From assembly GCA_029865605.1 (NCBI GenBank), contig JAOUGE010000005.1:338-64337 (forward strand): a stretch of DNA of 64,000 nt, given 5' to 3'. Each line of letters starts with the position of its first letter. Positions within the stretch are counted from its first letter, which is position 1. Below are positions 16,365 to 49,435 of the stretch, one piece after another. A model generated the notes under the pieces. It had not been told where the DNA came from. It ran no database searches and saw only the letters and a list, made by a program, of their open reading frames with translations. The position numbers and the translations under genes are program-made. The DNA is from Candidatus Berkelbacteria bacterium (GTDB lineage: Bacteria; Patescibacteriota; UBA1384; DTJR01).

Positions 16365-16441
16365 AAATTTGTTTATAAGAAGGTCGAAGGCGGTCGGGGC
16401 TTGGGGCCGCCGACCGCCTGGTAGCTAGGGGGGAGCAGTTG

Positions 16442-16786
16442 TCAGAGGAGAGGGGATGGCATCCCGGCTGGAGCGGCTGAAGCGATTGCCCGGCTGATGG
16501 TCGCGGGAGTCCAGAGGGTTCCCTTGTCGAACCGTACTCTGCGGTCTCCGTGAACTGACCTGGTTGCGCGCAGCCAGGCGGATTCGACCTCGTTGGGTGG
16601 CGGCTCGTAGTGGAACAGTACTCTCACCACCCAAGCTGTCGCTGTCTGTGACCAGACATCAACGTCCGCTTCCAGTCTTCTCTCTTCTCGCCTCAGTGCA
16701 GCGATGAACTCAGCGAATACCTGTGTTACCGGCTCGGTTTGCACTTCCTCACTCCCCTTCCGTGAGTAGTACTCGCAATCTATCAA
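16442..16786 (-). CDS. GC-rich hypothetical protein (islet 1)
   Basis: 114-aa ORF whose composition is visibly much more GC-rich than its neighbours. The listed start is TTG and is uncertain. A GC hairpin AGGCGGTCGG...CCGACCGCCT lies just downstream (16388-16418). Confidence 0.45.
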   Translation of the reverse strand: MIDCEYYSRKGSEEVQTEPVTQVFAEFIAALRREERRLEADVDVWSQTATAWVVRVLFHYEPPPNEVESAWLRATRSVHGDRRVRFDKGTLWTPATISRAIASAAPAGMPSPLL

Positions 16787-16823
16787 AAATCAGGTTATAC
16801 TTCAAGCGGAAAGGGCTGGTTTT

Positions 16824-18335
16824 ATGGAGAAACTCTCAATTATTAAGTCGGTTGTTGCAGTCGGGCTCGAGCCACAGGTAGTTGATGTTGAAGTTGATGT
16901 TGGAGCGGGACTACCGGGGTTGACGATTGTCGGCCTTCCCGACAAAGCAGTTGAGGAATCGAAGGAACGAGTCCGCCTCGCTTTGAAAAATTCCGGTTTT
17001 GACTTCCCGCAAAAGAAAATTGTCGTCAACCTTGCTCCGGCTGATGTCAAAAAGGAAGGCCCGGCTTATGATTTGCCGATTGCCGTTGGAACTTTAATTG
17101 CCTCAGGCATCATCAAACCAAAAGAAATTAATAAAACCATCTTTATCGGCGAGCTCTCATTAAGCGGGAAACTGCGGGCAACGAAAGGGATAATTCAGGC
17201 CTCAATTCTAGCGAAAAAAAAGAACCTTTCCCTTGTCTGCCCGATTCAGAACCAAGCCGAAGCCAATTTGATCTCGGGTATAGAAATCCTAGCTGCCGAA
17301 GATCTTAAATCAATGGTTGCGGCATTGCTTGCTGATGATACCAGGATTTTTTCAAAAACCACCGGCGTTAAAGATGTCCCAGAGCCCGACTACGGCGATT
17401 ATGATTTTCAAAATGTTGTTGGCCAGTCTCAAGCCAAGAGAGCGCTTGAGATCGCCGCCGCCGGCGGCCACAACGTGCTTTTGTCCGGCCCGCCCGGCGG
17501 CGGCAAAACACTCTTGTCTCGCAGTATTATCTCGATCCTGCCCCCGCTTGAGGAAGAGGAGCTTTTAGAGGCAACTAAAATTTATTCCGTGGCTGGCCTT
17601 TTAACCGAAGACGAGCCGATTATTATTCGTCGTCCCTTCCGCTCCCCCCATCACACAACCTCCGCCGTGGCAATAATCGGCGGCGGGACATATCCCAAGC
17701 CCGGTGAAATATCATTGGCCAACAAAGGTGTTTTATTTTTAGATGAATTCCCCGAATTTCCCCGCTCGGTTTTGGAAGCCTTGCGCCAGCCGCTTGAAGA
17801 TAAAGTGGTTACTGTTAGCCGGGCCCAAGCCACCTATCGTTTTCCGGCTGACTTTATTTTGGTCGCGGCTAAAAATCCCTGCCCCTGCGGTTTTCTGGGA
17901 GACGAGCATCACGAGTGTAAGTGTCCGGCGACCCAAATTCTAAGCTACGATCGTCGCGTTTCCGGCCCGCTTCTAGACAGGATAGATCTTTATCTTAATG
18001 TCGGGAAAATCCCTCTCAAGAAAATCCAGTCCTCACAAAAAGAAGAAAAATCAAGTGAGGTAAAAAAGAGAGTTATCAAAGCGAGGAGACTGCAAATCTC
18101 AAGGCAGGGGAAGCTAAATAGCCAGCTTAGTAAAAAGGATCTTAATAGATTCGCCGCTCTCAACGAAGAACAGGAAGAATTTTTGGAGGGAGCGGCAGAG
18201 AAGCTTGGCCTTTCGATGCGCGGTTTTATCAAAGTTTTAAGAATTTCAAGGACTATTGCCGACCTTGCCCAAAGCAAAAATGTTTTAATGGAGCATTTGG
18301 CTGAAGCTCTCCAATATCGCCAGCGCGAGCAGTAA
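16824..18335 (+). CDS. comM: ComM/YifB Mg-chelatase-like AAA+ protein
   Basis: Lon-like N-terminal domain, GPPGGGKTLL Walker A, and the ChlI-type C-terminus. Confidence 0.85.
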   Translation: MEKLSIIKSVVAVGLEPQVVDVEVDVGAGLPGLTIVGLPDKAVEESKERVRLALKNSGFDFPQKKIVVNLAPADVKKEGPAYDLPIAVGTLIASGIIKPKEINKTIFIGELSLSGKLRATKGIIQASILAKKKNLSLVCPIQNQAEANLISGIEILAAEDLKSMVAALLADDTRIFSKTTGVKDVPEPDYGDYDFQNVVGQSQAKRALEIAAAGGHNVLLSGPPGGGKTLLSRSIISILPPLEEEELLEATKIYSVAGLLTEDEPIIIRRPFRSPHHTTSAVAIIGGGTYPKPGEISLANKGVLFLDEFPEFPRSVLEALRQPLEDKVVTVSRAQATYRFPADFILVAAKNPCPCGFLGDEHHECKCPATQILSYDRRVSGPLLDRIDLYLNVGKIPLKKIQSSQKEEKSSEVKKRVIKARRLQISRQGKLNSQLSKKDLNRFAALNEEQEEFLEGAAEKLGLSMRGFIKVLRISRTIADLAQSKNVLMEHLAEALQYRQREQ

Positions 18336-18337
18336 CT

Positions 18338-19021
18338 ATGGAATTTAAGCTACCCAAGAGTTTTGAGGGCGTGCGGATTTTTTCAAGCGAAATTACTGAC
18401 GGGCCGATGAATCGTCTTCTGGAGGAGGGCAGGAGAAACGCCCCAAAATTTCTAAGAAAAATCAGGGCAAGTAAGCCCTTCTCTTCAGCCGGCCAGCCTC
18501 ATAAGGACTTAATTAAAATTATTGAAAAAGACGGCTTTTACAAAAACGCCGATGGGCTGCTGACAAGAGGGGATTATGTCTTGGCGGTCAAGACGGCGGA
18601 CTGCATTCCCCTGCTTCTCTTTAGCCGTGAATCCTGTGTGATTGGGGCGGTTCATTTGAGCCGAAAGAACTTAATCTCGGGAATGGTTTCTAAATCCCTT
18701 AAAGAGAATCTTAAAAAATTAAAGGTCACTCCCCTATCACTCAAGATTTTTTTGGCGCCTCATATAAGATGGCCTCATTATGAAATTAAAAAGGATATTT
18801 ACGACCCCCTGCGCGGGACAAAGTGGGAGGGGTTTATTAAATCCAAAAATTCCAAAAATTATTTTGACCTAACTCAAGCGGCGGTTTGCGAGCTTGAAGG
18901 GATCGGAGTTTTAAAGGATAATATTTATGACAGCAAAGTAGACACTTATCTGTCAGATAAGTTTTATAGCGCGAGGAGGGGGCAGAACTTTGTTTTTCTA
19001 ACAGTGATTTTTAAAAAATGA
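18338..19021 (+). CDS. YfiH/PgeF (DUF152) family protein
   Basis: VKTADCIPLLLF...GAVHLSRKN pattern typical of the laccase-domain/PgeF family. Confidence 0.6.
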   Translation: MEFKLPKSFEGVRIFSSEITDGPMNRLLEEGRRNAPKFLRKIRASKPFSSAGQPHKDLIKIIEKDGFYKNADGLLTRGDYVLAVKTADCIPLLLFSRESCVIGAVHLSRKNLISGMVSKSLKENLKKLKVTPLSLKIFLAPHIRWPHYEIKKDIYDPLRGTKWEGFIKSKNSKNYFDLTQAAVCELEGIGVLKDNIYDSKVDTYLSDKFYSARRGQNFVFLTVIFKK

Positions 19022-20713: not shown

Positions 20714-20746
20714 TTGTTATTGCAGAATTATTTACAATAGATATTA

Positions 20747-21055: not shown

Positions 21056-21111
21056 GATATGGCTAACAGCTGCTAGCTGTAAGCTGATTTGATTATTGCT
21101 ATAATCAAGCT

Positions 21112-22578: not shown

Positions 22579-22581
22579 GGC

Positions 22582-22878: not shown

Positions 22879-22880
22879 GA

Positions 22881-23141: not shown

Positions 23142-23215
23142 TGGAGGCATCGCCGGGATTTGCACCCGGGTAAACGGTTTTGCAGACCGTTGCCTGACTA
23201 CTCGGCCACGATGCC
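23142..23215 (-). tRNA. tRNA-Cys (GCA)
   Basis: Minus strand reads GGCATCG TG GCCGAGTAGTCAGGC A ACGGT CTGCAAA ACCGT TTAC CCGGG TGCAAAT CCCGG CGATGCC T CCA. Confidence 0.85.
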
Positions 23216-23317: not shown

Positions 23318-23391
23318 GACAGCCAAATCTTATCAGATTTAAGGCGAAAAAAAAGACCGCCTAAGCGGTATGGCGGCCCGGCTCGAGCCCC

Positions 23392-23619
23392 CTACGGGAA
23401 GTAGGGGAACTCGGCCGGGCCGTGGACGATCTTGACTTGGGCCAAGGCGCGGTTAATCACGCCGAAGGCCCAGTCGATCTGGGGCCAGATCACGAGCGTC
23501 AGGGACGCCCCGACTAAGGCCCAGACCCAGCACATGGGGCTGGGTGTTACGGGTTGGGCGGCTGCGAACGGCCACAGCGCCCACCACGCGAGAACGGCGA
23601 GAGCTGCCTTCCAGTTCAT
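23392..23619 (-). CDS. GC-rich small hydrophobic protein (islet 2)
   Basis: 75-aa ORF with AGGAG 7 nt upstream of the ATG and two TM-like segments. A GC hairpin GGCCCGGC...GCCGGGCC lies downstream. Confidence 0.5.
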   Translation of the reverse strand: MNWKAALAVLAWWALWPFAAAQPVTPSPMCWVWALVGASLTLVIWPQIDWAFGVINRALAQVKIVHGPAEFPYFP

Positions 23620-23825
23620 CAGTTGGCTCCTTCCGCTTCAGGGCGCGGCTACCCTAATGTCTTATCAAACATCGCGCCTTCGGAGTTCTACCCCCTCCAG
23701 CGTGACCATTATTTATACCATATTTCTTGATAAAAGTCAAGTCCTGACAGGTTAAAGTTATCGGATCAAAGTTTTTTACTGGGAATATTTACAAAAATGT
23801 ATTTTAAGATACAATTAGACCTGTT

Positions 23826-23900
23826 GCGGGTGTCGTATAGCGGTTATTACACGTGCTTGCCAAGCACGAGAGGGCGGTTCAATTCCGCTCACCCGCTCCA
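23826..23900 (+). tRNA. tRNA-Gly (GCC)
   Basis: GCGGGTG/CACCCGC acceptor stem, anticodon arm CGTGC-TTGCCAA-GCACG, T-arm GGCGG-TTCAATT-CCGCT, encoded CCA. Confidence 0.9.
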
Positions 23901-24039
23901 ACGAGATGGCCTTTAGGCCATTTTTCGTTGGAGCACCCTGCCGAGAATTGAAGGCCGGACCCCGCCACGGCGGGGGAGGCGGGGTCGCGAAATTTACCAG
24001 CAGGTAAATATTTGTGACCAATTCCGCTCACCCGCTCCA
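23901..24039 (+). repeat. tRNA-3'-flank structured element, copy C
   Basis: CGTTGGAGC is antisense of ...GCTCCAACG. It is followed by a linker, then GAATTGAA (antisense of the T-loop), GGCCGGA, hairpin CCCCGC-CACG-GCGGGG, GAGGCGGGGTCG, hairpin AAATTTACC-AGCA-GGTAAATATTT and GTGAC. It ends in a 21-nt exact repeat (24019-24039 = 23880-23900). Confidence 0.85.
23906..23925 (+). terminator. Terminator-like hairpin between tRNA-Gly and the antisense arm of element C
   Basis: ATGGCC-TTTA-GGCCAT followed by TTTTT. Confidence 0.6.
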
Positions 24040-24045
24040 GCCAGA

Positions 24046-24066: not shown

Positions 24067-24156
24067 TTTGTTAATTCTTGACTTATTTTGAAATAAAAAG
24101 TACTATTTTCTCTTAACCCATGAAGTCCCCGAAGATGGGTTCTTTATGGGTGATAT

Positions 24157-25038
24157 TTGACATTACATTCCGCGCCGCCCGCAGGGCGGCGCACCAAGGA
24201 GGAACCGCTTTATGATTTACCCCGCCGAGGCGGACGGCCGCCGGTCAACGACGAGTGGCGAGTGGAGTACTGCGACGGCCTATGCTGCGGCGTCTCGGCG
24301 ACATACGAGTTGCACTGGGCACTGACCGGTAACTGCTTCGATATCGAAGCCGAGATCGTCCGCCACGTCGCTCTAGCAGACAAGAGCGACGAGGGGTGGG
24401 TAACCGTTCTGACTCGTACCGACGAGATCAGAGCATTGGCGGACAGCTCCGTCGCGCAGCTTGAACACATCAACCCGCTGGCGCCGGTCGGCTCGCGCGT
24501 CATCCTTCCGTGGCCGCGGGTTGACTGCGTCATCGACCGCGACGGAACGACGTCGCCTTACGCTAACCCCTTCGTCGAAGTCACGGGGGAAGCCCTGGCA
24601 GGCCGCAAGAAGGAGCACTGCTTCTTCACCCATATCCGGCCTGACGATGATGGCTGGGTGGCCGCGGCGCTTCAGGGTCCCAAGGGAACGGGGATCGGCG
24701 TGCGCTCCAAGTACGACAAGCGGTTGCCCTTCTTCTCTGTCTGGTTCTCCCGCACGGGCAAGAAGGGCGTGGCGGCAATCGGCCTTGAGCCGGGTCCACT
24801 GCCGCTCGGCGCGGCAGAGACAGATCGACTCGAGATGAGGGCTGTCCTCGAGGGGGGAGAGGAGATGACGCGCATGACTGAACTCTACTTCCTCGATACT
24901 TCCGAGAGGATGACAACCTTCCTCGAGAGCAACGGGATGAGCGCTGGCTCGCTTCCCAAGCAGTTCGAGAAGATCGGCACCGACAAGAAGGACTGGCCGA
25001 CGCTCTGCAGGGCGGCTGGTATCAACGGCAAGCGCTAG
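24157..25038 (+). CDS. GC-rich hypothetical protein (islet 3); 5' end probably frameshifted
   Basis: 293-codon ORF whose third positions are mostly G/C. No credible in-frame start: the listed TTG is itself the TTGACA box. AAGGAGG (24196-24202) plus ATG 24212 lie in another frame that stops at 24325. Confidence 0.5.
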   Translation: MTLHSAPPAGRRTKEEPLYDLPRRGGRPPVNDEWRVEYCDGLCCGVSATYELHWALTGNCFDIEAEIVRHVALADKSDEGWVTVLTRTDEIRALADSSVAQLEHINPLAPVGSRVILPWPRVDCVIDRDGTTSPYANPFVEVTGEALAGRKKEHCFFTHIRPDDDGWVAAALQGPKGTGIGVRSKYDKRLPFFSVWFSRTGKKGVAAIGLEPGPLPLGAAETDRLEMRAVLEGGEEMTRMTELYFLDTSERMTTFLESNGMSAGSLPKQFEKIGTDKKDWPTLCRAAGINGKR

Positions 25039-25090
25039 GGCGGCCGAAGGCCGCCCCGGATCTGATCACATCTGTGCGGGGGAACTCACT

Positions 25091-25246
25091 ATGCCGCGTA
25101 AGCCCCGCAAGGTTATCGAGGAAGAAAATGCGTGCGAGCGCCGCTCGCGCCCCAGGCGCTACGTCTCGGCCCGCTCTTATGTCCATCATAAGGATTGGGA
25201 AGACGGAGGCCGACGTAAGGCCAAAGGAAAGGAGCATTCCTGGTGA
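25091..25246 (+). CDS. Possible small Arg/Lys-rich protein (51 aa, GC-rich)
   Basis: ATG-to-TGA ORF MPRKPRKVIEEENACERRSRPRRY... with G/C-biased third positions. A strong terminator follows. It is below the ORF-track length cutoff. Confidence 0.35.
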   Translation: MPRKPRKVIEEENACERRSRPRRYVSARSYVHHKDWEDGGRRKAKGKEHSW

Positions 25247-25264
25247 GCACACGCTCACCCCCAC

Positions 25265-25300
25265 GGGCCCCGCCATTGGCGGGGCCCGAGTTGTTTTTGT
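25265..25300 (+). terminator. Intrinsic terminator closing islet 3
   Basis: GGGCCCCGCC-ATT-GGCGGGGCCC followed by a T-rich tract, GAGTTGTTTTTGTTT. Confidence 0.75.
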
Positions 25301-27072: not shown

Positions 27073-27319
27073 GGGCAAGTGGTGAAATGGTATACACGCT
27101 AGCTTCAGGAGCTAGTGACCGCAAGGCCGTGGCTTCGCGAGGGTGGAACTCGCGAAAATACCTTGTATTTGTGCCGAAGTGGTGGAATGGTAGACACGCA
27201 GCGTTCAGAGCGCTGTGAGCGCAAGCTCGTGAGAGTTCAAATCTCTCCTTCGGCACCATCTATAATTTCGAATCCGCAACATTAGTTTTTCGTTCCACCC
27301 GAAAAACGCTTGCCCACCA
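27073..27319 (+). pseudogene. Split outer tRNA-Leu(CAG) interrupted by a nested intact tRNA-Leu(CAG)
   Basis: The 5' part (27073-27132) has acceptor GGGCAAG, a D-arm, anticodon arm CTAGC-TTCAGGA-GCTAG and a variable arm. A T-loop remnant TTCGAATCCGCA lies at 27267-27278. A perfect 3' acceptor CTTGCCC-A-CCA lies at 27309-27319. Hairpins at 27134-27156 and 27285-27307 have complementary loops. Confidence 0.6.
27173..27258 (+). tRNA. tRNA-Leu (CAG), class II
   Basis: GCCGAAG/CTTCGGC acceptor stem, anticodon arm CAGCG-TTCAGAG-CGCTG, long variable arm, T-arm GAGAG-TTCAAAT-CTCTC, encoded CCA. Confidence 0.85.
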
Positions 27320-27341
27320 GAATTAAACTTTTAACTGATTT

Positions 27342-28368: not shown

Positions 28369-28523
28369 AGCAGAACTGCCCTTGTGGCAGTTTTTTGCTT
28401 GGTGCCCCGTGGACTCGAAGGCCGGACCTCGCCACGGCGGGGGTTCGAGGGGTGGCACCTGAGAAGGGTCGCGAGGCCCGCCAGCAGGCGGGAACTTGTG
28501 ACCGAGTCCTGTCCTCGGCACCA
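28369..28523 (+). repeat. tRNA-3'-flank structured element, copy D
   Basis: TGCTTGGTGCC-CCGT-GGACTCGAA is antisense of the CCA end and T-loop. It is followed by GGCCGGA, hairpin CCTCGC-CACG-GCGGGG, an extra segment TTCGAGGGGTGGCACC, GAGAAGGGTCG, hairpin CCCGCC-AGCA-GGCGGG and GTGAC. It ends in a 21-nt exact repeat (28503-28523 = 28348-28368). Confidence 0.85.
28375..28396 (+). terminator. Terminator-like hairpin between tRNA-Leu(GAG) and the antisense arm of element D
   Basis: ACTGCC-CTTG-TGGCAGT followed by TTTTTT. Confidence 0.65.
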
Positions 28524-28530
28524 CAAAGAT

Positions 28531-29106: not shown

Positions 29107-29240
29107 GGCGGAATTGCGAAGCAATTATTTGACTGGTGCGGCGAACCGAGAATCGAAGGCCGGAGCGCGACGGCGCGAGGCGGGGTCGAGCGCAAAATCA
29201 GCAGATTTTGACGGGTGACCGATTCTGTCCCCCGGCACCA
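29107..29240 (+). repeat. tRNA-3'-flank structured element, copy E
   Basis: Hairpin AATTGC-GAA-GCAATT, then CTGGTGC-GGCGAACCG-AGAATCGAA (antisense), GGCCGGA, hairpin GCGC-GACG-GCGC, GAGGCGGGGTCG, hairpin CAAAATC-AGCA-GATTTTG and GTGAC. It ends in a 21-nt exact repeat (29220-29240 = 29086-29106). Confidence 0.85.
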
Positions 29241-29443
29241 TCGCGTATGTCCTCATCTGCCAGAAAAGGTAGATGTGGAGACGCGATTTGACGGGGGCGG
29301 CAGGTCGATAACCTGAGAACCTGCCGACAAGAATCGAAACGCGCAGGCTCGACGGAGCCGAGCGGGGGTCGCGAGGCCCGCCAGCAGGCGGGAACTTGTG
29401 ACCGATTTCCTGCCTGCCGGCAGGCAGGTGTCCCTCTGCACCA
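29241..29443 (+). repeat. tRNA-3'-flank structured element, copy F (tandem, diverged, with a palindrome insert)
   Basis: Second unit directly after copy E: AGAATCGAA, hairpin GGCTC-GACG-GAGCC and GAGCGGGGGTCG. Hairpin 2 is identical to that of copy D. After GTGAC comes a Phe-like 3' end, GATT[CCTGCCTGCCGGCAGGCAGG palindrome]TGTCCCTCTGCACCA. Confidence 0.75.
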
Positions 29444-29469
29444 CTTACCCCGCATGAGCGGGGTTCAAT

Positions 29470-31018: not shown

Positions 31019-31162
31019 TGCGGAGGGCTAAAATGCCCGGAAAGTTTGGAAAATAGCGCTTCTGTCCGCTTAAAGGGGTGGATAGGGCGCTGTTTTCAAA
31101 GGCAAGCAGCTTGACATTAAACCCGCTTCAGCGGGTCAAGTGCCTGTAAGGAGGCCGCTAAG

Positions 31163-33031
31163 ATGCGCCCGAAACTGGTAGTAGTTCTTACTGTCTTTGC
31201 GGCCGCGCTAGCGGCCGCCACGGTTAACGCAGACGTCGTCGTGGCCATTCATGGCCACTCGAACTTCTCGGATGGTATGAAGCCCCTGCGCGAGACGTAC
31301 GTCGAAATGTGCTCGGGCGGGGCCGAGGTGGCGATCGTAACCGACCATACCGAGGTGATCGATCTGCCGCAGATTCCCGCTTCTTTTCTCAAGATGGAGT
31401 TTGCCAGGTACAGCCATTGGGAAATGGCTTCTGGCGCACTCCTGAAGGAGGCGGGACTGGCCAACTGGAAGGCGGCCTACCGGAGTCTCCAGACCGAGAG
31501 GGTGGTAGTGATCCCGGCAATGGAGGTCGGGCTAGTAGCCCGAAAGACGGATGCGTTGTGGGATCGCCGCTGCCACTTCCTGTTCATCGGCGGGTCGGTC
31601 GAGGATAACACCTACGATCAAGTGATGCAGTGGGCATCGGCCTATACCACCGAGAAAGGGGCGGTGGAATGTCTCAAGAAACTCACCGCCCTGGCACAGG
31701 AGCGCGGTGCGTTGCTTGTTGCTGCTCATCCAACTAACTCAGGCTGGCTGATAGACTCTAGCCTTCTTGAGTTGGTGAACGGGATTGAGGCAATGAATCA
31801 CGATCTCCTCCCTGGCGCCAGCATAAGAGGAGATACTCCCGAGAACCTCCTCAAGACAATGCCGGCGGTTCCTTCTTCCCCTGTGGTAACGGCGGGGCTG
31901 GACTGGCACGGTGTCATCGGCCAGTCGGGATTCAGGGACATTTTCCGGCGCTTCACTGTCGTCCTGACAGACGAGAGGACACCAACGGGAATTGTGGGCG
32001 CTCTTCAAGCGCGGCGAAGTTATGCCGCTCTCGGCGACGCTCGGATCACCCGCGGCAAGGAGCTCATCGGCGGCGAGGTCGGCTTCGACCAGCCGTTTGA
32101 GATGGGCTTCGAGGGGGTAAGGGGCAACAAGGCCTGGCTCGTCTGCCGCTCGAGCGATAGTGCCTACCGCGAGTTCAAGCCAGTCTCGCTTAAGAGCGGC
32201 ACTCTCAACATCAAGAACCTCGGGAAGGCCCTGGGGCCAGCGATGACGTCCGGCGGCTGGATCGTCGTTGCTGCCCCTGCTGGCACGCCCCAGATCATCA
32301 CCTCCGGCATCAAGGTCAATCCGGCCGAAGCCGGCGGTGGCGAACCCTCCTTCGTCTTCTACGACAAGCCGCTCGGCCCTGGACAGCTGGCTAGGCCCAA
32401 GAAACCTGGCTTCTGGGATCAGGTCCGAGGGGGGCTGGGAGATATCGTTGCGGGAGCGCTCTCCGGTGGGATGGATCTACCTGGGATGCGCATCCGCATT
32501 ACTCCGGGCAGTAGCATGCCGGGCGAAGGCATACCGCAAGTGCCAGCCGGGGGCACAGTACCCCAGGGCGGGCAGGCCGGGCTCGGTGAGGATTTCAGCA
32601 ACTGGCCGATGGAGTATAGCGGGGTGCACCCCACCGCGCGGGGACAAACCCGCGATCAGGTTGTAGCGACCCTCTACGTGAACCCAGAGGCGCAGCAGGG
32701 GCTGCTTGCGTTCCAACTCAACGATCTGCAGCAGCAGATCCCAGTTACGCTGCCCGGCGTGTTCGGTAACGGAGGCTTCTGGCGATCCTCTTGGCAGTCG
32801 AAGCTCCCGTCTCGTCCGAGGTTTATGCATCCCCAACCCAGTTCACTCGGGGGGGGTCCGCGACCTGCCTGCCTTGAGGGTTGGCATCTCGGTCACAGTT
32901 ACAGGGATAAGAACGACCCCGCTACATACCACTTCGATCTGACTCTTAGAGCCCTTGCCGATGTACCTGAGCGTGTGCCTGTCGCGGTAGGGTACTGGGA
33001 GATGCGCATGGAGCTTCTCCGCGTCCGCTAG
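31163..33031 (+). CDS. GC-rich secreted PHP-domain protein with a G/P-rich C-terminal region (islet 4)
   Basis: AAGGAGG lies 7 nt upstream of the ATG. Signal peptide MRPKLVVVLTVFAAALAAATVNA. PHP-type metal motifs HGHSNFSDG and IVTDH. Composition is far more GC-rich than the flanks. Confidence 0.7.
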   Translation: MRPKLVVVLTVFAAALAAATVNADVVVAIHGHSNFSDGMKPLRETYVEMCSGGAEVAIVTDHTEVIDLPQIPASFLKMEFARYSHWEMASGALLKEAGLANWKAAYRSLQTERVVVIPAMEVGLVARKTDALWDRRCHFLFIGGSVEDNTYDQVMQWASAYTTEKGAVECLKKLTALAQERGALLVAAHPTNSGWLIDSSLLELVNGIEAMNHDLLPGASIRGDTPENLLKTMPAVPSSPVVTAGLDWHGVIGQSGFRDIFRRFTVVLTDERTPTGIVGALQARRSYAALGDARITRGKELIGGEVGFDQPFEMGFEGVRGNKAWLVCRSSDSAYREFKPVSLKSGTLNIKNLGKALGPAMTSGGWIVVAAPAGTPQIITSGIKVNPAEAGGGEPSFVFYDKPLGPGQLARPKKPGFWDQVRGGLGDIVAGALSGGMDLPGMRIRITPGSSMPGEGIPQVPAGGTVPQGGQAGLGEDFSNWPMEYSGVHPTARGQTRDQVVATLYVNPEAQQGLLAFQLNDLQQQIPVTLPGVFGNGGFWRSSWQSKLPSRPRFMHPQPSSLGGGPRPACLEGWHLGHSYRDKNDPATYHFDLTLRALADVPERVPVAVGYWEMRMELLRVR

Positions 33032-33058
33032 GCCAGCAGGCCGAGCGGACCTGAACTC

Positions 33059-33109
33059 AAGGGGGCCCTCACGGGCCCCCTTCGACGTTTGCGCCAAGGC
33101 GCTATTTTT
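33059..33109 (+). terminator. Tandem hairpins closing islet 4
   Basis: AAGGGGGCCC-TCAC-GGGCCCCCTT, then GCGCC-AA-GGCGC followed by TATTTTT. Confidence 0.7.
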
Positions 33110-34663: not shown

Positions 34664-34790
34664 GGTTGTTTTTTGGTGAACAGGGGGGATTCGAAAGCCG
34701 GACCAGCCCAGGGCTGGGAGACGGGGTCGCACAAAAATTCAGCAGAATTTTATGAGTGACCGAATCCCACCTCGCCCACCAGGTTGTTTT
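34664..34790 (+). repeat. tRNA-3'-flank structured element, copy G
   Basis: TGGTG-AACAGGG-GGGATTCGAA (antisense), then AGCCGGA, hairpin CCAGCC-CAG-GGCTGG, GAGACGGGGTCG, hairpin AAAATTC-AGCA-GAATTTT and GTGAC. It ends in a 30-nt exact repeat (34761-34790 = 34643-34672). Confidence 0.85.
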
Positions 34791-38238: not shown

Positions 38239-38245
38239 AGCGACA

Positions 38246-38268
38246 GGGCGCCAGCGGCGCTGGCGCCC
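38246..38268. terminator. GC hairpin between convergent alaS and the islet-5 ORF
   Basis: GGGCGCCAGC-GGC-GCTGGCGCCC perfect 10-bp stem with no clear T-run. Confidence 0.45.
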
Positions 38269-38293
38269 GTGGGGAGACAACGCAAGAATGGCT

Positions 38294-38503
38294 TCAGGCG
38301 GGGATAGGGCCTCGGTAGCCGGGGAAGATGCATCGAGAAGGCGGCCCGCCAAGAGCCCGAAGGGCCTCGTCATAGCGCTCAAGGTAACGCTCGTCTGCTC
38401 TTCGGAGCATTCTCTCGATCAGTGCTGGGTCATTACGGCGGCGCCTTCGGCGGCTGGTAGGCCCCTTCGTGGTCGTTGCCATTCCCATCACCTCCGAGAA
38501 CAT
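38294..38503 (-). CDS. GC-rich small Arg-rich hypothetical protein (islet 5)
   Basis: 69-aa ORF. GGAGGTGA precedes the internal ATGs, so the true start may be M6 or M8. Contains an RRRRRR tract and then a helical ALIERMLRRADERYLERYDEALRAL. Confidence 0.4.
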   Translation of the reverse strand: MFSEVMGMATTTKGPTSRRRRRRNDPALIERMLRRADERYLERYDEALRALGGPPSRCIFPGYRGPIPA

Positions 38504-38524
38504 TATATCAGATGATGAGAGTGC

Positions 38525-43894: not shown

Positions 43895-44013
43895 GTGGTG
43901 GGAATTTACAATAACTTTACCCTTTACCCTTTTAACTTTTAACTGCATGCAGAGTGATTTGACAAATGAGCTCTAGTCGTTAGAATTCAATTTGCTAACC
44001 ATATTTTTAAATT

Positions 44014-45057: not shown

Positions 45058-45066
45058 CACCAGACT

Positions 45067-45837: not shown

Positions 45838-46307
45838 GAAATATTTATTTGGCTGTTGGCTTGGTCGTCGTATTTTTTCTTTTAGAGGTCGGTATTGCCG
45901 CTCGCTATCTCGGTGAGTTTAGTCCGGTTTTGGTCGTGCCGCTTTTATATCTTATCTCGCGCCAACTGAGCCTCAAGCAGATGCTGGTTTTAAGTCTGGT
46001 CTTCGGCTTACTCTTTGATTTGAGCCTGCTTGACCACGTCCCTTTTGTAACTTTATTTTTCATTGCCCAAACTCTCATTCTCAATTATTTGAGCCAGAAG
46101 ATCCTTGATTTTAGTGCCCCTTTTGTTTTGGTCAGCGCCGGAGTGGTTTTGGCGCTGGTTTTTTCTCTTTTGAAGCTTTTAGTTTTGTCGGAATTTGTCT
46201 TGGGGGTGGGGCTCGGGAAAATCCTGCTTTTTAATTTGGTTTTGTCAGCTTTGATTTGTTCAGCCTGGGTAATTATTTCAAGACGCTATGGCCAAGCCTC
46301 GATTTAG
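45834..46307 (+). CDS. mreD: Rod shape-determining protein MreD (putative)
   Basis: Small polytopic membrane protein between mreC and mrdA. Confidence 0.6.
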   Translation: MRNIYLAVGLVVVFFLLEVGIAARYLGEFSPVLVVPLLYLISRQLSLKQMLVLSLVFGLLFDLSLLDHVPFVTLFFIAQTLILNYLSQKILDFSAPFVLVSAGVVLALVFSLLKLLVLSEFVLGVGLGKILLFNLVLSALICSAWVIISRRYGQASI

Positions 46308-48147
46308 TATCAAAGATTATTTGGGCGAGCACGTCTTTTTTGATGATCATGTTGATGGCTCGGAGGTTTTTACCAGAAGCCGTGGGCGGTCCGCCGTTTG
46401 GGGCGTGCTTTTTGCCTTCGTTTTTTTTGTTGCCATCGCCGTAGCGCTGTTTCGCCTTCAGGTGCAGGAGGGCTTCGTTAATTTGAGCTTGGCCGAGGGC
46501 AACCGGCTTAAAAATGTTCCCTTGGCCGCGCCGCGGGGCGTAATTTATGATGATCAAGGCGAGCCGCTCGTAACAAATGAGCCGATTTATCAGCTGGTAG
46601 TTCAGGCCAGCCGGGTTAAGGATATTGAGAAAATAGATCCTAAGGCCTTTGAGCTTACCCAAGTAACAAAAGAAGGGGTGATTGATAAAGTCAGGGACGA
46701 CCGCCAGCGGGTGGGTTTGGTCGTGCTTCGAGATAAAATTGCAAGAGATGATGCCCTGCTTTTAAAGTCCCGCCTTGTGTCCTATAGCCAGTTTGAAGTA
46801 GTCGAGAGCTATGTCCGCCATTACACCGATCCTGCTTTAAGCCATATTTTAGGCTATATTGGCAAACTCTCTCAAGACGAGGCGACTGGCAATCCGACCG
46901 CCGTGGTCAACCGCTTTATTGGCAAGTCGGGCCTTGAAAAAAAGTATGATGAGTATTTACAGGGAATGCCGGGGACAAGAAAGGCGGAAGTTGACGCATC
47001 GGGGCGGGTGATGAGATTGCTGTCCACCACCGAGCCGCAAAAAGGCGATGATCTTTACACCTCTATTGATAGTGAACTGCAGATTTATCTGACCTCTATT
47101 TTAAAATCCAAGGCGGAAGGGCTTCAAACCAAAGCGGCGGCGGTAGTGATGGACCCACGCGACGGCTCGGTCAAGGCCCTTGCCAGTATTCCCTATTATG
47201 ATAATTCCAAAATGTCCTTTGGCTTAACGCAGGAGGAATACGATAAAATCGCCAAGGATGAAAATCTACCCCTTTTTGATCGGGCAATTGCCGGCACCTA
47301 TCCGCCCGGTTCCTCAATCAAGCCTTTTATCGCCTCAGCCGGCTTGACCGAGGGGGTAGTTAACGACTCAATTGCTTTTGACACGCCAAGCGAGATTGTC
47401 ATCGGCGATTGGCACTTTCCTGACTGGAAAGATCACGGCACAACCGACATCAAGCGGGCTATCGCTGAATCAAATAATATCTTTTTCTTTGCTGTCGGTG
47501 GGGGCTGGGGGCCGATTAAACAAGGGTTGGGAGTGGAGCGGATAAAAACCGGCCTTGAAAAGTTTTCGTATGGGTCGAAAACCGGCATTGATTTGCCCGG
47601 CGAGGCGGAGGGATTTATCCCGACGCCGGAGTGGAAAAAGAAAAAGAAGAAAGAAAGCTGGTATATCGGCGATACCTATAATCTTTCAATTGGCCAAGGC
47701 GATCTTTCGGTCACGCCGCTTCAGCTTGCCAACGCTACTGCCACCATTGCTAACGGAGGCAAGCTGTTTAAGCCCCATTTTGCTAAAAAAATTATTGAGG
47801 ATAATAAAGAAGTTAAGGAGTTTACTGATACGGATTATCTTGTGGCAAAAGATGTTTTTCCGGCCGGTCATCTTAAGACGGTCAGAGAGGGGATGAGGAT
47901 GACTATCACCCAAGGATCGGCCTATAGTGTTTTTGGTGATGGGTTTCCGATCAAAATTGCCGGAAAAACCGGAACCGCTCAGTTCGGTAATAAAGAAAAG
48001 ACCCACGCTTGGTTCACCTCGTTCGCGCCCTATGACGACCCGCAAATTGTGGTTACGATTTTGATTGAGGGGGGCGGCGAGGGCTACCAAACTGCCGCCC
48101 CCCTCGCCAAACAGGTCTACCAGTGGTGGGCAGGACACAGGACGTGA
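46288..48147 (+). CDS. mrdA: Penicillin-binding protein 2 (transpeptidase)
   Basis: PGSSIKP (SxxK), SNN, and KTGTAQ motifs. Confidence 0.9.
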   Translation: MAKPRFSIKDYLGEHVFFDDHVDGSEVFTRSRGRSAVWGVLFAFVFFVAIAVALFRLQVQEGFVNLSLAEGNRLKNVPLAAPRGVIYDDQGEPLVTNEPIYQLVVQASRVKDIEKIDPKAFELTQVTKEGVIDKVRDDRQRVGLVVLRDKIARDDALLLKSRLVSYSQFEVVESYVRHYTDPALSHILGYIGKLSQDEATGNPTAVVNRFIGKSGLEKKYDEYLQGMPGTRKAEVDASGRVMRLLSTTEPQKGDDLYTSIDSELQIYLTSILKSKAEGLQTKAAAVVMDPRDGSVKALASIPYYDNSKMSFGLTQEEYDKIAKDENLPLFDRAIAGTYPPGSSIKPFIASAGLTEGVVNDSIAFDTPSEIVIGDWHFPDWKDHGTTDIKRAIAESNNIFFFAVGGGWGPIKQGLGVERIKTGLEKFSYGSKTGIDLPGEAEGFIPTPEWKKKKKKESWYIGDTYNLSIGQGDLSVTPLQLANATATIANGGKLFKPHFAKKIIEDNKEVKEFTDTDYLVAKDVFPAGHLKTVREGMRMTITQGSAYSVFGDGFPIKIAGKTGTAQFGNKEKTHAWFTSFAPYDDPQIVVTILIEGGGEGYQTAAPLAKQVYQWWAGHRT

Positions 48148-48335
48148 GCGGGTCCTGTCGGGCACCGTTTTCTCTCGGCCCGCGTCGGAATTCCCAGCGA
48201 GAATTCCGCGCTTAGCCTCGCCCTCACTCTTCCGCCTTCGGCGTAAACCATGCCCGTTCGGCACGCCTGCCGGAGGCAGGGCTCCGGATGACCTCGATAA
48301 AAGGTGCCCGCCACCCGCTGTTCGACAGGAAGGTT
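48148..48335 (+). other. GC-rich structured intergenic region R1 (candidate ncRNA or remnant; strand unknown)
   Basis: Long-range helix CCTGTCG-GGCACC (48154-48166) pairs with GGTGCC...CGACAGG (48303-48329), enclosing several hairpins. One is CGGAATTC-CCAGCGA-GAATTCCG; another is CCTGCC-GGA-GGCAGG. Shares collinear 8-9-mers with R2. Confidence 0.4.
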
Positions 48336-48475
48336 ACAGTGAAATCTGGGAAATAAAAAATTGAATTTTCCGATAAATTTCTCTTATTTCGTGTTATCGC
48401 TTTTTATTTTTAGATAAAGAATATGTATAATTTGTCTAGCCGTCATCACCGGCGCTTGAAAGGAGGGAGCAGCTC

Positions 48476-49099
48476 GTGACAGATGAGATCGAGCGACAGT
48501 CTGCCGGCTTAAGAACGGCGCTGGCAGCACTTGTCTTCGTTGATCCGTCAGAGCTTGCGCCTGGGGGGCTGCACCCCGGGCTTGAGTTCCTCACCTGGAC
48601 CTCCGGCACGCCGGGCGAGGTTCTCCGGCAGATGATCAACGAAGGTGATGTTGACGACAAGACGGCCAAGCTTTTCCTCGACCTGATGATCTCGGTCTGG
48701 TCTGCCGGCTACAGCTCTTCCCCCGGGCTTGTTGTGAGAGGGGGGAATATTGTACCGGCAGAGTTGAGAGAGGGCGTTGCGAGTTACTGTGTGGATCACT
48801 TCAGCACTCTCCTCTCCCAGCTCATCGAGGACTTGCCGGAGCGTGTGGATGCGGCGACGAAGAGACGCGCTCGCACTCGTTCCCTCTCATTGCTTGCAGG
48901 TGAAGCGCCCCCCACGACTGACTGGCGGATGACAAAGGCTGGGAGTGCGAAGTGTCTCTTGATCTTGGGCCGGGTGGCTCGCCTCCGGCGCCATGCCGGG
49001 GTTTGGTTCGAGATCGAGTTAACAGGTCTGGGGGAACTTCTGGGTGTAGCCCAGCAGTCTCTCCCAGAGCGTTCCGTGGCCAGCCCGCCTGACGAATGA
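48476..49099 (+). CDS. GC-rich hypothetical protein (islet 6)
   Basis: 207-codon ORF with a GTG start 7 nt after AAAGGAGGGAG. It is preceded by an AT-rich, host-like region containing TATAAT (48426-48431). Confidence 0.55.
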   Translation: MTDEIERQSAGLRTALAALVFVDPSELAPGGLHPGLEFLTWTSGTPGEVLRQMINEGDVDDKTAKLFLDLMISVWSAGYSSSPGLVVRGGNIVPAELREGVASYCVDHFSTLLSQLIEDLPERVDAATKRRARTRSLSLLAGEAPPTTDWRMTKAGSAKCLLILGRVARLRRHAGVWFEIELTGLGELLGVAQQSLPERSVASPPDE

Positions 49100-49435
49100 C
49101 GGGCTGGCCACCACTTTTTAAAAGTATGGGGGCTCTTAAAAGCATCGCCAAAGTCAGCTCCTTCCCCAAGAGTCAACCTTGCGCTTCGAAAGAAGCTGGA
49201 TTGAATATCTGCTTTATTTATAAACAGGATGAATGTTCAGAGTGTCTTTCAGAAAGCAAGGTTGAACTTTTGAGCGAGCTAGGGGGTTGGTTGTTAGGAT
49301 AGGGGGAACGCTTCGCAAGTAGGTCCCCTTATCCTAACGTGGGTCGGCAGGCTTTAGCCTGCCCTAATTTATGGATTTTTTAAAAATCGGTCCCGTGCGT
49401 TTGCTCGGATTAGGGAAACGGGTTAAGCTATAAGT

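Follow-up and report, generated by a model that had tools for sequence, protein, structure and literature searches.

GC-rich genes in intergenic slots of a Candidatus Berkelbacteria genome and its sister loci

Six GC-rich islets and their genes

The window, a stretch of 64,000 nt, belongs to a Candidatus Berkelbacteria MAG and has a GC content of 0.466 overall and 0.451 outside six short segments, which we refer to as islets (Table 1). An earlier note on this DNA had described sharp compositional islets in a low-GC genome. The islets are borne out, all six (GC 0.58 to 0.65) lying above every equal-length background window (background, 0.45); the genome itself, at 0.45, is mid-GC. The islets also proved to be self-contained units of one or two genes in a few conserved gaps between housekeeping or tRNA genes and, as that note had it, none of the ORFs that were scanned looked like a recombinase.

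Table 1. Features of the window. The z-scores compare the GC content of each islet with that of equal-length background windows of the 64,000-nt window.
Feature	Position	Strand	GC	z	Content
Islet 1	16380-16795	-	0.60	3.9	GC-rich segment between miaA (15474-16364, -) and comM (16824-18335, +); ORF 16442-16786; perfect 10-bp hairpin 16388-16419
Islet 2	23340-23700	-	0.65	4.7	75-aa small membrane protein ORF 23392-23619, between tRNA-Cys (23142-23215) and tRNA-Gly (23826-23900); Shine-Dalgarno GGAAGGAG; intrinsic terminator 23356-23369
tRNA-trailer element (element C)	23926-24041	+			Behind tRNA-Gly; CM match 118 bits; covariation
Islet 3, whole			0.63	7.3	Preceded by AT-rich promoter-like site TTGACT-17-TACTAT, 24078-24106
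Islet 3, gene 1	24157-25038	+			293-aa DUF4432/aldose-1-epimerase-like protein; hairpin 25038-25056 at gene end
Islet 3, gene 2	25091-25288	+			51-aa Arg-rich ORF 25091-25246, then perfect 12-bp hairpin terminator 25264-25288
tRNA-trailer element	28397-28525	+			Behind tRNA-Leu(GAG); covariation
Two tRNA-trailer elements	29131-29425	+			Behind tRNA-Phe: 29131-29242 and diverged copy 29318-29425; covariation
Islet 4	31111-33082	+	0.62	8.8	622-aa secreted PHP-domain metallophosphoesterase 31163-33031 with variable C-terminal region; TTGACA at 31111; Shine-Dalgarno TAAGGAGG at 31147-31154; 10-bp hairpin 33059-33082
tRNA-trailer element	34671-34783	+			Behind tRNA-Leu(TAA); covariation
Islet 5	38240-38515	-	0.63	3.9	Arg-rich ORF 38294-38503, 62-69 aa, between alaS and AP-endonuclease-2-family gene; perfect 11-bp hairpin 38246-38268, common to end of alaS
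Islet 6, whole			0.58	4.8	
Islet 6, part 1 (R1)	48148-48335				GC-rich, non-coding-looking, directly after PBP gene stop
Islet 6, part 2	48426-49099	+			Promoter-like TATAAT 48426-48431; Shine-Dalgarno AAGGAGG 48460-48466; 207-aa ORF 48476-49099, GTG start

The median GC3 over the ORFs of the window is 0.47. The expectation that G or C would fill most third codon positions was correct for islets 2, 3, 4, and 6, whose ORFs carry a clear coding signal with GC3 (0.67 to 0.87) well above GC2: GC3 is 0.87 in islet 2 (GC2, 0.51), 0.78 in the first gene of islet 3, 0.71 in islet 4, and 0.67 in islet 6 (GC2, 0.50). GC1, GC2, and GC3 are nearly flat in R1, in the 51-aa ORF of islet 3, and in the islet 1 and islet 5 ORFs, so that it is uncertain whether these are coding. 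The islet 1 ORF (GC1/2/3 of 0.62/0.52/0.63, a weak coding signal) is 114 aa long counted from a TTG and 100 aa in the public gene call; family searches returned no match for it, and its RNA fold z is -1.8. R1 is predicted to fold into a closed multi-hairpin structure (fold z of -2.15 on the plus strand and -2.75 on the minus strand) and has no match in Rfam. The 207-aa protein of islet 6 had no match among protein families, phage sets, or defence sets, and its AlphaFold model (pLDDT of 39) is uninformative.

The signals around the genes largely agree with what had been described. Strong Shine-Dalgarno sequences were found for islets 2, 4, and 6. Perfect GC hairpins of 8 to 12 bp accompany islets 1, 3, 4, and 5 and none was found after the islet 6 ORF; islet 2 has an intrinsic terminator, so that the 3' ends of islets 2 to 4 are each marked by a terminator or GC hairpin. 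The DNA upstream is AT-rich, as had been proposed for the ORF at 48476: at positions -150 to -31 the GC content is 0.41 in islet 2, 0.37 in islet 3, and 0.28 in islet 6. Both this upstream DNA and the ribosome-binding sites resemble those of the surrounding genes. From these signals, islets 2, 3, 4, and 6 are probably independent transcription units, with AT-rich upstream DNA and, in islets 2, 4, and 6, strong ribosome-binding sites.

The first ORF of islet 3 is indeed a GC-rich coding ORF of 293 codons; however, it is truncated, lacking approximately 60 to 90 N-terminal residues present in its homologues (355 to 385 aa). Its protein has a sub-threshold match to Pfam DUF4432 (7e-7), and the family profile matches PDB 3ty1 at 3e-5. 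Of 1.84 billion representative proteins searched exhaustively with phmmer, 14 matched. The 622-aa protein of islet 4, which NCBI lists under Candidatus Berkelbacteria, on its own also falls below the Pfam and NCBIfam cut-offs; 12 of the 17 sequences in its family alignment (A2) match Pfam PHP, the family profile finds the PHP proteins 2anu and 3e0f in the PDB at approximately 1e-10, and members score 175 to 321 bits in leave-one-out HMM searches. The residues H-x-H, D, H, E, H, and D-x-H are invariant across eight homologues and may be read as the PHP metal ligands.

A covariation-supported structured element was also found behind tRNA genes. Its copies account for GC-rich spots outside the list of islets (28397-28525, 29131-29425, and 34671-34783), the pair behind tRNA-Phe explaining a spot of GC 0.62 at 29107-29455; at its end, element C repeats the final 20 nt of tRNA-Gly in direct orientation.

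The same slots in sister loci

The evidence from sister genomes covers approximately 10 kb on either side of the S1 gene, together with five other contigs. Gene GC in these loci is bimodal, with 41 of 277 ORFs at +0.09 to +0.20 GC and a gap near +0.06. A homologue in another locus was found for 61% of the GC-rich ORFs versus 93% of the background ORFs, and the median identity to such homologues is 27% and 59%, respectively. Signal-like N-termini are present in 22 of 43 GC-rich ORFs versus 29 of 233 background ORFs, and the proteins of the GC-rich genes contain more Gly, Ala, Pro, and Arg and less Lys and Ile.

In 19 distinct sister loci, a PHP homologue directly follows the S1 gene; the complete copies are all GC-rich (0.51 to 0.61, against backgrounds of 0.37 to 0.45), with a GC3 offset of +0.24 ± 0.05. 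This slot holds a PHP gene in most loci, a C39-like peptidase gene in L013 and L015, and nothing in L020. Non-homologous GC-rich occupants were also found between tRNA-Gly and secG, between tRNA-Cys and tRNA-Gly (unrelated genes for 269 aa in L020 and a 148-aa cupin in L015; L028 has a low-GC gene there), and between alaS and the AP-endonuclease-2 gene, where L006, L024, and L027 carry a GC-rich family of secreted proteins of approximately 205 aa that is not homologous to the islet 5 ORF. The comparative support for islets 2 and 5 is therefore at the level of the slot, with non-homologous occupants. The GC-rich occupant of a given gap thus varies from one sister genome to the next, and cassette-like turnover is real. 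A family of selfish cassettes finds no support: no sequence, end, or motif common to the islets was found.

The PHP alleles are mosaic, with sharp breakpoints. At the gene borders, close to them, or within the gene, identity falls from approximately 0.8 to 0.9 to the level of alignment noise. Between L007 and L027, codons 1 to 420 behave like the flanks and have an amino acid identity of 0.87 to 0.97 and a 4-fold-site identity of 0.68 to 0.86 (0.69 to 0.73 in the flanks), whereas the codons beyond 420 have an identity of merely 0.29. PHP identity does not follow flank identity: L024 and L037 share 96% in S1 and 24% in PHP, and L006 and L024 share 83% and 45%.

For islet 3, four of the five homologue contexts examined were readable, and these are Berkelbacteria or CPR-like, an NCBI Berkelbacteria MAG among them. 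The homologue has a GC content of 0.58 to 0.64 in all five, with neighbors at 0.30 to 0.47 in four and a mixed 0.42 to 0.63 in L046. In the closest relative, L045, it occupies the same position upstream of secG with approximately 50% identity and a GC content of 0.64, followed by a homologue of the 51-aa ORF (L045 3322-3504; 63% identity; E value of 5e-10). GC has stayed high in the L045-window pair despite synonymous saturation, and the comparison shows inheritance of islet 3 in place.

The sharpness of the composition boundaries might raise the suspicion of a chimeric assembly, or of contaminating high-GC reads joined to a low-GC contig, and a Logan contig from the same run does begin approximately 210 nt downstream of islet 6, while some sister contigs stop inside or beside GC-rich slots. 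The chance of such an artefact is negligible, since islets 4 and 5 and their junctions are identical, in the same context, in a second public assembly, other samples have yielded over 20 assemblies with GC-rich homologues at the same position, and the boundaries interrupt no reading frame, ribosome-binding site, or terminator. For islets 2 to 5, the second assembly (islets 4 and 5) and the GC-rich genes of sister genomes in the same gaps (islets 2 to 5) exclude it.

Origin and maintenance of the high GC content

The earlier note had favored the repeated uptake of single genes from donors of high GC content, with the host lineage of an episymbiont as one candidate, and recent independent transfers not yet ameliorated would explain a composition that is atypical at all codon positions, like that of genes from a genome of approximately 60% GC, and the placement of islets in intergenic gaps. 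A distant PHP homologue does occur on a 71%-GC contig, and islets 1 and 6, which are without traceable homologues, might individually be recent imports. For islets 3 and 4, the two that can be traced, this account fails: the homologues recovered for islet 4 are in sister Berkelbacteria loci and the closest ones of islet 3 in low-GC Berkelbacteria or CPR-like contexts; they are equally GC-rich, and those of islet 4 and the nearest of islet 3 are in the same syntenic slot. The only PHP homologues found outside this lineage are three distant relatives (36 to 60 bits), the one on the 71%-GC contig among them. At 20 to 50% amino acid identity the homologues still have a GC3 of 0.53 to 0.80 (flanks, 0.3 to 0.5), which argues that the signal in islets 3 and 4 is old and maintained rather than the waning mark of a transfer. 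Neither the exhaustive search of 1.84 billion proteins nor that of 5.8 billion word-indexed ones revealed a close donor, although the latter is insensitive for these proteins and may have missed a closer outside donor of PHP. The upstream regions and ribosome-binding sites look like those of local genes. Taken together, a recent origin in a high-GC host is highly improbable.

We are confident of the descriptive core, a lineage-intrinsic class of GC-rich genes in conserved slots that does not stem from recent host-derived transfer; such a "flexible" gene class is best read as a standing property of Berkelbacteria genomes. Our full proposal, to which we assign a probability of about 0.5, is that the islets are recombinase-free cassette slots of these genes, whose GC content is kept high by a recombination-linked bias. 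It can be envisioned that, after natural transformation, which is assumed here, homologous recombination exchanges the genes in the gaps, or parts of them, with the conserved flanks serving as anchors. The occupants would be distant homologues of the same gene (PHP after S1; the DUF4432-like gene before secG in L045) or unrelated GC-rich genes. Such replacement would require no recombinase in cis and would leave sharp breakpoints and mosaic alleles behind. A GC-biased process acting on these hot-spot genes may then maintain their composition, and movement of the genes within a pool specific to Berkelbacteria might strengthen its effect.

As the cause of the GC offset, recombination is a tentative choice. 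Recombination rate and GC content are reported to be positively correlated in 82% of 146 bacterial species (PMC11879095). An unrelated whole-gene swap forms heteroduplex in the flanks alone, yet the flanks are not GC-rich; the AT-rich upstream regions would need opposing selection under a composition-blind process; and the PHP genes show the same GC3 in their conserved N-terminal part (0.66) as in their swappable C-terminal part (0.65). To our knowledge, the recombination-linked GC effects described in bacteria are also much smaller than +0.24 GC3.

Several of the same observations could reflect selection on the coding sequence, through translation-tuning codon usage, stable mRNAs, or cheap Gly/Ala/Pro-rich exported proteins with GC3 following. 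The enrichment ends at the ORF and terminator and leaves the upstream DNA AT-rich, PHP GC3 is uniform whatever the variability of the domain, and both the signal-like N-termini and the amino acid bias of the GC-rich genes would fit. However, the shift affects all codon positions in the order GC3 > GC1 > GC2, the pattern expected from directional pressure at the DNA level; non-secreted proteins, such as the DUF4432-like protein, are just as GC-rich; and so are pieces counted here as non-coding, among them R1 and the ORFs with flat GC in islets 1 and 5. We know of no precedent for selection maintaining a +0.24 GC3 offset in a subset of weakly conserved genes, and we regard this explanation as improbable.

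Alternatively, the slots might be filled repeatedly from an unsampled, lineage-specific GC-rich reservoir of phages, plasmids, or higher-GC Berkelbacteria relatives, always at approximately 55 to 63% GC and with no raising of GC in situ. The unrelated occupants of the same slots and the wholesale replacement of PHP alleles between close relatives, with similarities that do not track the flanks, are compatible with it; some GC-rich genes of sister loci resemble ordinary metabolic imports (a nagB-like gene and those for an S51 peptidase and an archaeal-type AdoMet synthetase), the relatives behind L045 and L046 have a larger GC-rich share, and PHP GC3 is only weakly correlated with host background GC3 (r of 0.32). 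On the other hand, tblastn against 50,697 phage records gave no match, nor did PHROGs or a pattern scan of IMG/VR for the 207-aa protein; all five DUF4432-like contexts look chromosomal, with lower-GC neighbors; islet 3 was inherited in place, with its GC retained, in the L045-window pair; and the upstream regions and ribosome-binding sites look locally typical. A reservoir of this kind is unlikely.

Relation to known systems

The islet 4 family resembles PHP metallophosphoesterases (Pfam PF02811; CehA/McbA type, NF038032; PDB 2anu and 3e0f) in its conserved His, Asp, and Glu residues and in its profile match, and differs from them by having, in addition, a signal peptide, a linker rich in Pro and Gly, and a C-terminal domain that is swappable.

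Like classical genomic islands and islets, the segments have atypical GC content and codon usage, tRNA or core-gene neighbors, and variable presence. Unlike them, they have no integrase among the ORFs scanned and no att duplication assignable to them, the tRNA 3'-end repeats belonging to the trailer element. Their traced homologues are confined to the same lineage, some of them syntenic, and their composition is un-ameliorated despite saturating divergence. Acquired DNA is usually AT-richer, not GC-richer, than its host.

High GC3 at recombining loci, seen here in mosaic PHP alleles whose similarities do not track their flanks, is a likeness to GC-biased gene conversion (PMC11879095). The offset of +0.24 GC3 and the discrete second mode set the islets apart from that process as described. 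Both, as far as we know, are far above described gene-to-gene effects.

The closest parallel in the behavior of the slots is with the minimal mobile elements (MMEs) of Neisseria (Snyder et al. 2007), by the definition given in PMC3082526: no mobility genes, with replacement by homologous recombination within the flanking DNA, which would also apply here. The gaps that would fit this definition, in the window and in the sister loci, are those between tRNA-Cys and tRNA-Gly, tRNA-Gly and secG, S1 and the next gene, and alaS and the AP-endonuclease gene. Strain-specific accessory genes in the meningococcal study were marked by low GC (PMC3082526); the islet cassettes, unlike MMEs, lie systematically 10 to 20 GC points above their genome. 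The pattern also spans a phylum-level lineage rather than one genus, with transformation assumed, and in the PHP slot mosaicism within the gene occurs besides whole-gene swaps.

Composition and genomic setting of the islets

In this analysis, we have confirmed by computed GC and GC3 values that the six segments described as GC-rich islets in the earlier note differ from the surrounding DNA, and their composition is atypical for the recipient genome. The islets have GC contents of 0.58 to 0.65 (z = 3.9 to 8.8), above those of all equal-length windows from the remaining sequence; the GC content of the window is 0.466, or 0.451 with the islets left out. The median GC3 of a greedy ORF set from the window is 0.47, and the outlier ORFs of islets 2, 3, 4, and 6 show the order GC3 > GC1 > GC2, as would be expected for genuine genes of a genome with approximately 60% GC. 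Flat GC1, GC2, and GC3 values were obtained for the R1 segment of islet 6 and for three putative ORFs, those of islets 1 and 5 and the 51-aa ORF of islet 3. The strong Shine-Dalgarno sequences and the perfect 8- to 12-bp GC hairpins (none after islet 6) were as originally described. Since the DNA upstream of the islet ORFs is AT-rich (GC as low as 0.28), the GC enrichment begins at or near the start codon.

The islets lie in intergenic gaps between ordinary housekeeping genes (miaA, comM, alaS, and genes for an S1-domain protein, a PBP, and a cation-efflux protein), which supports their cassette-like arrangement, and no recombinase was found among the ORFs scanned around them. The 622-aa protein of islet 4, listed by NCBI as hypothetical and assigned to a Candidatus Berkelbacteria MAG, is encoded on two contigs, one of 68 kb from ENA and the other a Logan contig from a separate assembly; the latter carries the same genes on either side of islet 4 and an identical islet 5. 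Chimeric assembly, which the earlier note had raised as a concern, is excluded for islets 2 to 5, because the second assembly agrees and sister loci hold GC-rich genes in place. Several assemblies stop near such genes: those of L012 and L030 (sister loci) end inside the PHP gene, the contigs of L004 and L005 start just before secG, and L051, a Logan contig, begins at window position 49311. That independent assemblies break in or beside GC-rich slots would fit either heterogeneity between strains at these sites or a loss of coverage over GC-rich sequence.

There were no Rfam matches inside the islets, either at gathering thresholds or at E <= 1, and RNA folding z scores were weak: islet 1 gave -1.8, islet 5 gave -1.35, and R1 gave -2.2 and -2.8. 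None of the islet proteins matched PHROGs or PADLOC, and an AlphaFold model of the 207-aa islet 6 protein, made from single-sequence input, was unusable (pLDDT, 39). R1, which is directly 3' of the PBP stop codon, has a closed multi-hairpin fold on the two strands (the two z scores just given), lacks coding periodicity, and has no Rfam match; it may represent a structured RNA, the remnant of a decayed gene, or a complex terminator.

Coordinates of islets, ORFs, and structured elements in the window and in comparison loci (L handles)
Feature	Locus	Position	Strand	Remark
Islet 1	window	16380-16795		putative 114-aa ORF
Islet 2	window	23340-23700		
75-aa membrane ORF (islet 2)	window	23392-23619	-	GC3 0.87
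Islet 3	window	24157-25288		
293-aa ORF (islet 3)	window	24157-25038		GC3 0.78
Islet 4	window	31111-33082		
622-aa PHP ORF (islet 4)	window	31163-33031		GC3 0.71
Islet 5	window	38240-38515		putative 62- to 69-aa ORF
Islet 6	window	48148-49099		
R1 (islet 6)	window	48148-48335		GC-rich
207-aa ORF (islet 6)	window	48476-49099		GC3 0.67
Second PHP-profile match	window	57193-58905		571 aa, GC 0.46
Trailer element	window	6465-6592	-	
Trailer element	window	7549-7661	+	
Trailer element	window	23926-24041	+	"element C"
Trailer element	window	28397-28525	+	
Trailer element	window	29131-29242	+	
Trailer element	window	29318-29425	+	
Trailer element	window	34671-34783	+	
Trailer element	L003, L004, L008, L009, L016, L018, L021, L024, L027, L028, L031, L040, L045			sister loci
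tRNA-Leu(CAG)-like 5' two-thirds	window	27073-27135		Rfam tRNA, 24.9 bits (weak)
Intact tRNA-Leu(CAG)	window	27173-27258		
Matching T-loop and acceptor 3' end	window	about 27269-27320		by eye
~205-aa secreted family	L006	19195-19812	-	
~205-aa secreted family	L024	18077-18703	-	
~205-aa secreted family	L027	13256-13870	-	
Three-gene block	L013	153-3246		GC 0.53, background 0.41
Large GC-rich blocks	L045	345-5349; 8484-10958		GC 0.59-0.66

Homologues of islets 3 and 4 and the donor question

The neighboring S1 protein was used to scan GTDB genomes and JGI metagenomes for sister loci, which gave 42 related loci. In 19 distinct Berkelbacteria loci, the ORF directly 3' of the S1 gene was matched by an HMM of the islet 4 PHP family, and every complete copy measured had a GC content of 0.51 to 0.61, compared with a local background of 0.37 to 0.45 (GC3 offset, +0.24 +/- 0.05). 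The GC3 of the PHP gene was not significantly correlated with that of the host (r = 0.32). Islet 4 is thus an old, syntenic, GC-rich gene. Another ORF in the window that matches the PHP profile has a normal GC content; therefore, PHP domains per se are not GC-rich in this genome.

The family members share a signal peptide, and residues H30, H32, D37, H62, E121, H189, D247, and H249 are invariant in eight homologues and invariant or at least 90% conserved in 17; we read these positions, which follow the pattern H-x-H, D, H, E, H, and D-x-H, as the metal ligands of the PHP domain. The window protein alone fell below the cutoff for Pfam PHP (PF02811; E = 0.051), 12 of the 17 sequences of PHP alignment A2 matched this model (best, 4e-8), and the family profile matched the solved PHP phosphoesterases 2anu (7e-11) and 3e0f (1e-10) in the PDB. 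NCBIfam returned a weak CehA/McbA match alone. Against leave-one-out models, the relatives found outside the family scored 36 to 60 bits, one of them on a contig of 71% GC, and each Berkelbacteria member scored 175 to 321 bits. A word-indexed search with the PHP alignment gave three weak outside matches and missed known sister proteins, and with the 622-aa and 293-aa proteins it returned the queries alone; this type of search was therefore judged too insensitive for these families.

For the 293-aa protein of islet 3, phmmer run exhaustively against 1.84 billion representatives yielded 14 proteins, the best with 52% identity. The window protein scored 28.7 bits against the DUF4432 model (cutoff, 32.5), over profile positions 172 to 283 only, and it lacks the conserved N-terminal 60 to 90 residues; the profile of this DUF4432-like family matched PDB entry 3ty1 at 3e-5 across most of its length. 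We inspected the contigs of five of the 14 homologues. The homologue in L045, where further GC-rich genes are present, has a GC content of 0.64 among neighbors of 0.46 to 0.50 (secG, SBP5, and NTP-transferase genes), and the corresponding values are 0.61 and about 0.37 to 0.46 in L047, 0.58 and 0.36 to 0.43 in L048, 0.63 and a mixed 0.42 to 0.63 in L046, and 0.62 and 0.30 to 0.45 in L054, an NCBI Berkelbacteria MAG. L045 is the closest relative among the loci compared, with flanking proteins 64 to 81% identical to those of the window; it carries the islet 3 homologue at the same place upstream of secG (approximately 50% identity), together with a homologue of the 51-aa ORF (63% identity). Because both copies of the islet 3 gene have a GC3 of 0.78 to 0.80 despite synonymous saturation, it is concluded that the high GC content is maintained and is not the decaying signal of a transfer.

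Judged by the refutation that the earlier note itself had set out, these findings do not support its suggestion that the genes came from high-GC donors such as the host lineage. The closest homologues of islets 3 and 4 are on Berkelbacteria or CPR-like contigs, that is, in relatives of the recipient and not in a donor lineage; nor are the two genes absent from the same sites in sister genomes, as the L045 and PHP loci attest. No homologues of islets 1, 2, 5, and 6 were found, large protein databases having been searched for islets 3 and 4 alone. Neither a mobility gene, among the ORFs scanned, nor an att duplication was found beside the islets. The tRNA-Gly 3'-end repeats at 23881 and 24020 were considered as an att site for islet 3 and rejected: they are arms of the tRNA-trailing element described below, which also occurs without islets. 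As an alternative, it had been proposed that the islets form a family of selfish cassettes, for which no support was found. Apart from short hairpin fragments, the islets have no 9-mer in common, and the idea of a shared uptake-sequence-like or cassette-end motif was rejected. The idea of silent paralogous cassettes as donors for gene conversion was likewise rejected, since islet DNA is not repeated anywhere in the window.

A GC-rich gene class and a tRNA-trailing element

We compared the GC content of 277 ORFs (120 aa or longer) from nonredundant Berkelbacteria loci with the median of each locus, and the distribution was bimodal, with a main mode at about 0, a second at +0.08 to +0.20, and a near-empty bin at +0.06. 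Homologues in another locus were found for 61% of 41 GC-rich ORFs and 93% of background ORFs, with median identities of 27% and 59%, respectively; beyond the PHP family, the GC-rich ORFs are mostly singletons. By a crude heuristic, signal-like N termini were present in 22 of 43 GC-rich and 29 of 233 background ORFs. No GC-rich slot genes were seen in the distant S1 loci L036, L038, L041, and L042 (27 to 45% identity). The data cover about 10 kb on either side of a single marker gene, together with five further contigs, and we infer from them that the class is genome-wide in Berkelbacteria. Literature searches turned up no earlier account of such a gene class in Berkelbacteria or CPR.

The secreted family of approximately 205 aa in the alaS|AP-endonuclease gap is, after PHP, a second syntenic, fast-evolving, GC-rich secreted family (32 to 35% mutual identity; GC, 0.52 to 0.53 versus about 0.40), without matches in Pfam, PHROGs, or PADLOC. 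The islet 5 ORF was considered as a remnant of this family and shows no similarity to it. The three-gene block of L013 encodes an archaeal-type S-adenosylmethionine synthetase (PF01941), a weak class II tRNA-synthetase-like ORF, and an S51 peptidase; it looks like an ordinary metabolic import, unlike the orphan genes. The GC-rich blocks of L045 are much larger than the islets; five genes precede secG there, including an AP-endonuclease-2-family gene that belongs to the low-GC core elsewhere.

A structured element of 110 to 130 nt (GC, about 0.6), of which we found seven copies in the window and 16 in sister loci, accounts for "element C" and the remaining GC-rich spots of this region. In all copies with enough upstream sequence to judge, a tRNA gene (Gly, Phe, Leu, Val, or Met) of the same strand precedes the element by 10 to 90 nt. 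The last 20 nt or so of the tRNA, including CCA, recur in both arms, as an imperfect inverted copy in the 5' arm and as a direct copy in the 3' arm; the conserved core reads GAAGGCCGGA-hairpin-AGGCGG-GGTCGC-(variable stem, AGCA loop)-GTGACC. Over the 23 copies, 92% of cells were paired, compared with 32 to 42% in slid controls, and 24 of 35 base pairs showed compensatory changes. The element is present behind a given tRNA in some genomes and absent in others; it has no Rfam match and is apparently undescribed. A role as a phage attP was rejected, the sole IMG/VR pattern match being a chance one with neither a CM match nor a nearby tRNA.

Two observations concern tRNA-Leu genes. In L045, an NlpC/P60 and amidase_3 gene pair directly follows tRNA-Leu(GAG) and its trailer element, a site that is empty in the window. 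As judged by eye, upstream of the intact tRNA-Leu(CAG) gene of the window lies the 5' two-thirds of a similar gene, with the matching T-loop and acceptor 3' end (..TTCGAATCCGC...CTTGCCCACCA) downstream, and it looks as if an old tRNA-Leu(CAG) copy was split by an insertion bearing the intact gene. As integration sites for the islets, tRNA genes were rejected: 15 of 32 GC-rich ORFs and 97 of 232 background ORFs lie within 300 nt of one.

Slot turnover and the origin of the high GC content

The same conserved flanking gene pairs recur across genomes with different whole-gene cassettes between them. The tRNA-Cys|tRNA-Gly slot holds the 75-aa membrane ORF in the window, a 269-aa ORF in L020, a cupin gene in L015, or a low-GC gene; the tRNA-Gly|secG slot has unrelated GC-rich occupants; the alaS|AP-endonuclease slot holds the 62- to 69-aa ORF in the window or the 205-aa family in L006, L024, and L027; and the slot after the S1 gene carries PHP, a different GC-rich gene for a C39-like peptidase (L013 and L015), or nothing (L020). 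Divergence of the PHP protein is decoupled from that of its flanks: S1, DHH, and PHP identities were 96, 85, and 24% for L024/L037, 96, 89, and 34% for L005/L022, 83, 70, and 45% for L006/L024, and 98, 93, and 88% (over 473 aligning aa) for L007/L027. DNA identity falls from 0.8 to 0.9 to alignment noise at or near the PHP borders in L024/L037 and in midgene in L005/L022 and L007/L027. In the last pair, amino acid and 4-fold-site identities are flank-like over PHP codons 1 to 420, and past codon 420 amino acid identity is 0.29. These breakpoints and flank-like codons argue that PHP genes change by segmental replacement through recombination rather than by uniformly fast point mutation. Sharp breakpoints at or near gene borders and within the gene, with vertically inherited flanks, fit incorporation through flank homology; gene replacement would proceed by homologous recombination through the flanks after DNA uptake.

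A shift of all codon positions in the order GC3 > GC1 > GC2 points to directional pressure at the DNA level. Three causes were considered, and with modest confidence we rank a recombination-linked GC bias, which would hold the islet genes GC-rich, as the most likely. PHP-type loci are demonstrable recombination hotspots, and recombination and GC content are positively correlated in 82% of 146 bacterial species (PMC11879095); several points count against such a bias, namely, the size of the effect, the AT-rich DNA upstream of the genes, and the fact that heterologous swaps form no heteroduplex. Ranked below it are a lineage-specific GC-rich gene pool that feeds the slots, of which nothing was seen in phage records (tblastn with three islet-family proteins), IMG/VR (scanned with the 207-aa protein), or PHROGs, and selection on the coding sequence or mRNA.

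The most far-reaching reading is tentative, with a probability of roughly 0.3. Berkelbacteria may have two GC compartments: a mid- to low-GC core and a discrete class of single, fast-turnover, often secreted genes that exceeds the core by 10 to 20 GC points (about +0.24 in GC3) throughout the lineage as sampled and is kept so by a locus-specific, recombination-tied, GC-biased process at cassette slots, in addition to the undescribed tRNA-trailing element. Bacterial mutation is AT-biased, and accessory and fast-evolving genes are normally AT-richer than the core. If this reading is true, these genomes would reverse the usual AT-rich accessory genome and provide a bacterial analogue of recombination-driven isochores, and a discrete, long-kept GC-rich flexible class would be a strong natural test of what sets bacterial GC content, be it biased gene conversion, selection, or gene-pool origin; metagenomic reads for such a test are already available. 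Composition-based detectors of horizontal transfer, binning, and decontamination tools will mislabel such genes as foreign or contaminant, and assemblies are prone to breaking at these slots. The secreted PHP proteins with their swappable C-terminal domains, together with the other secreted orphans, are plausible factors for host or environment interaction in this uncultivated CPR lineage.

The islets are reminiscent of the minimal mobile elements of Neisseria, which by definition (PMC3082526) are alternative whole-gene cassettes that lie between conserved flanks and enter by homologous recombination; the islets match them in flanks and cassettes. Integron cassettes are arrayed beside intI and attI, and each ends in attC; the islets are single units scattered over 33 kb, with no common terminal motif, with hairpins that differ in sequence, and with no integrase seen among the ORFs scanned.
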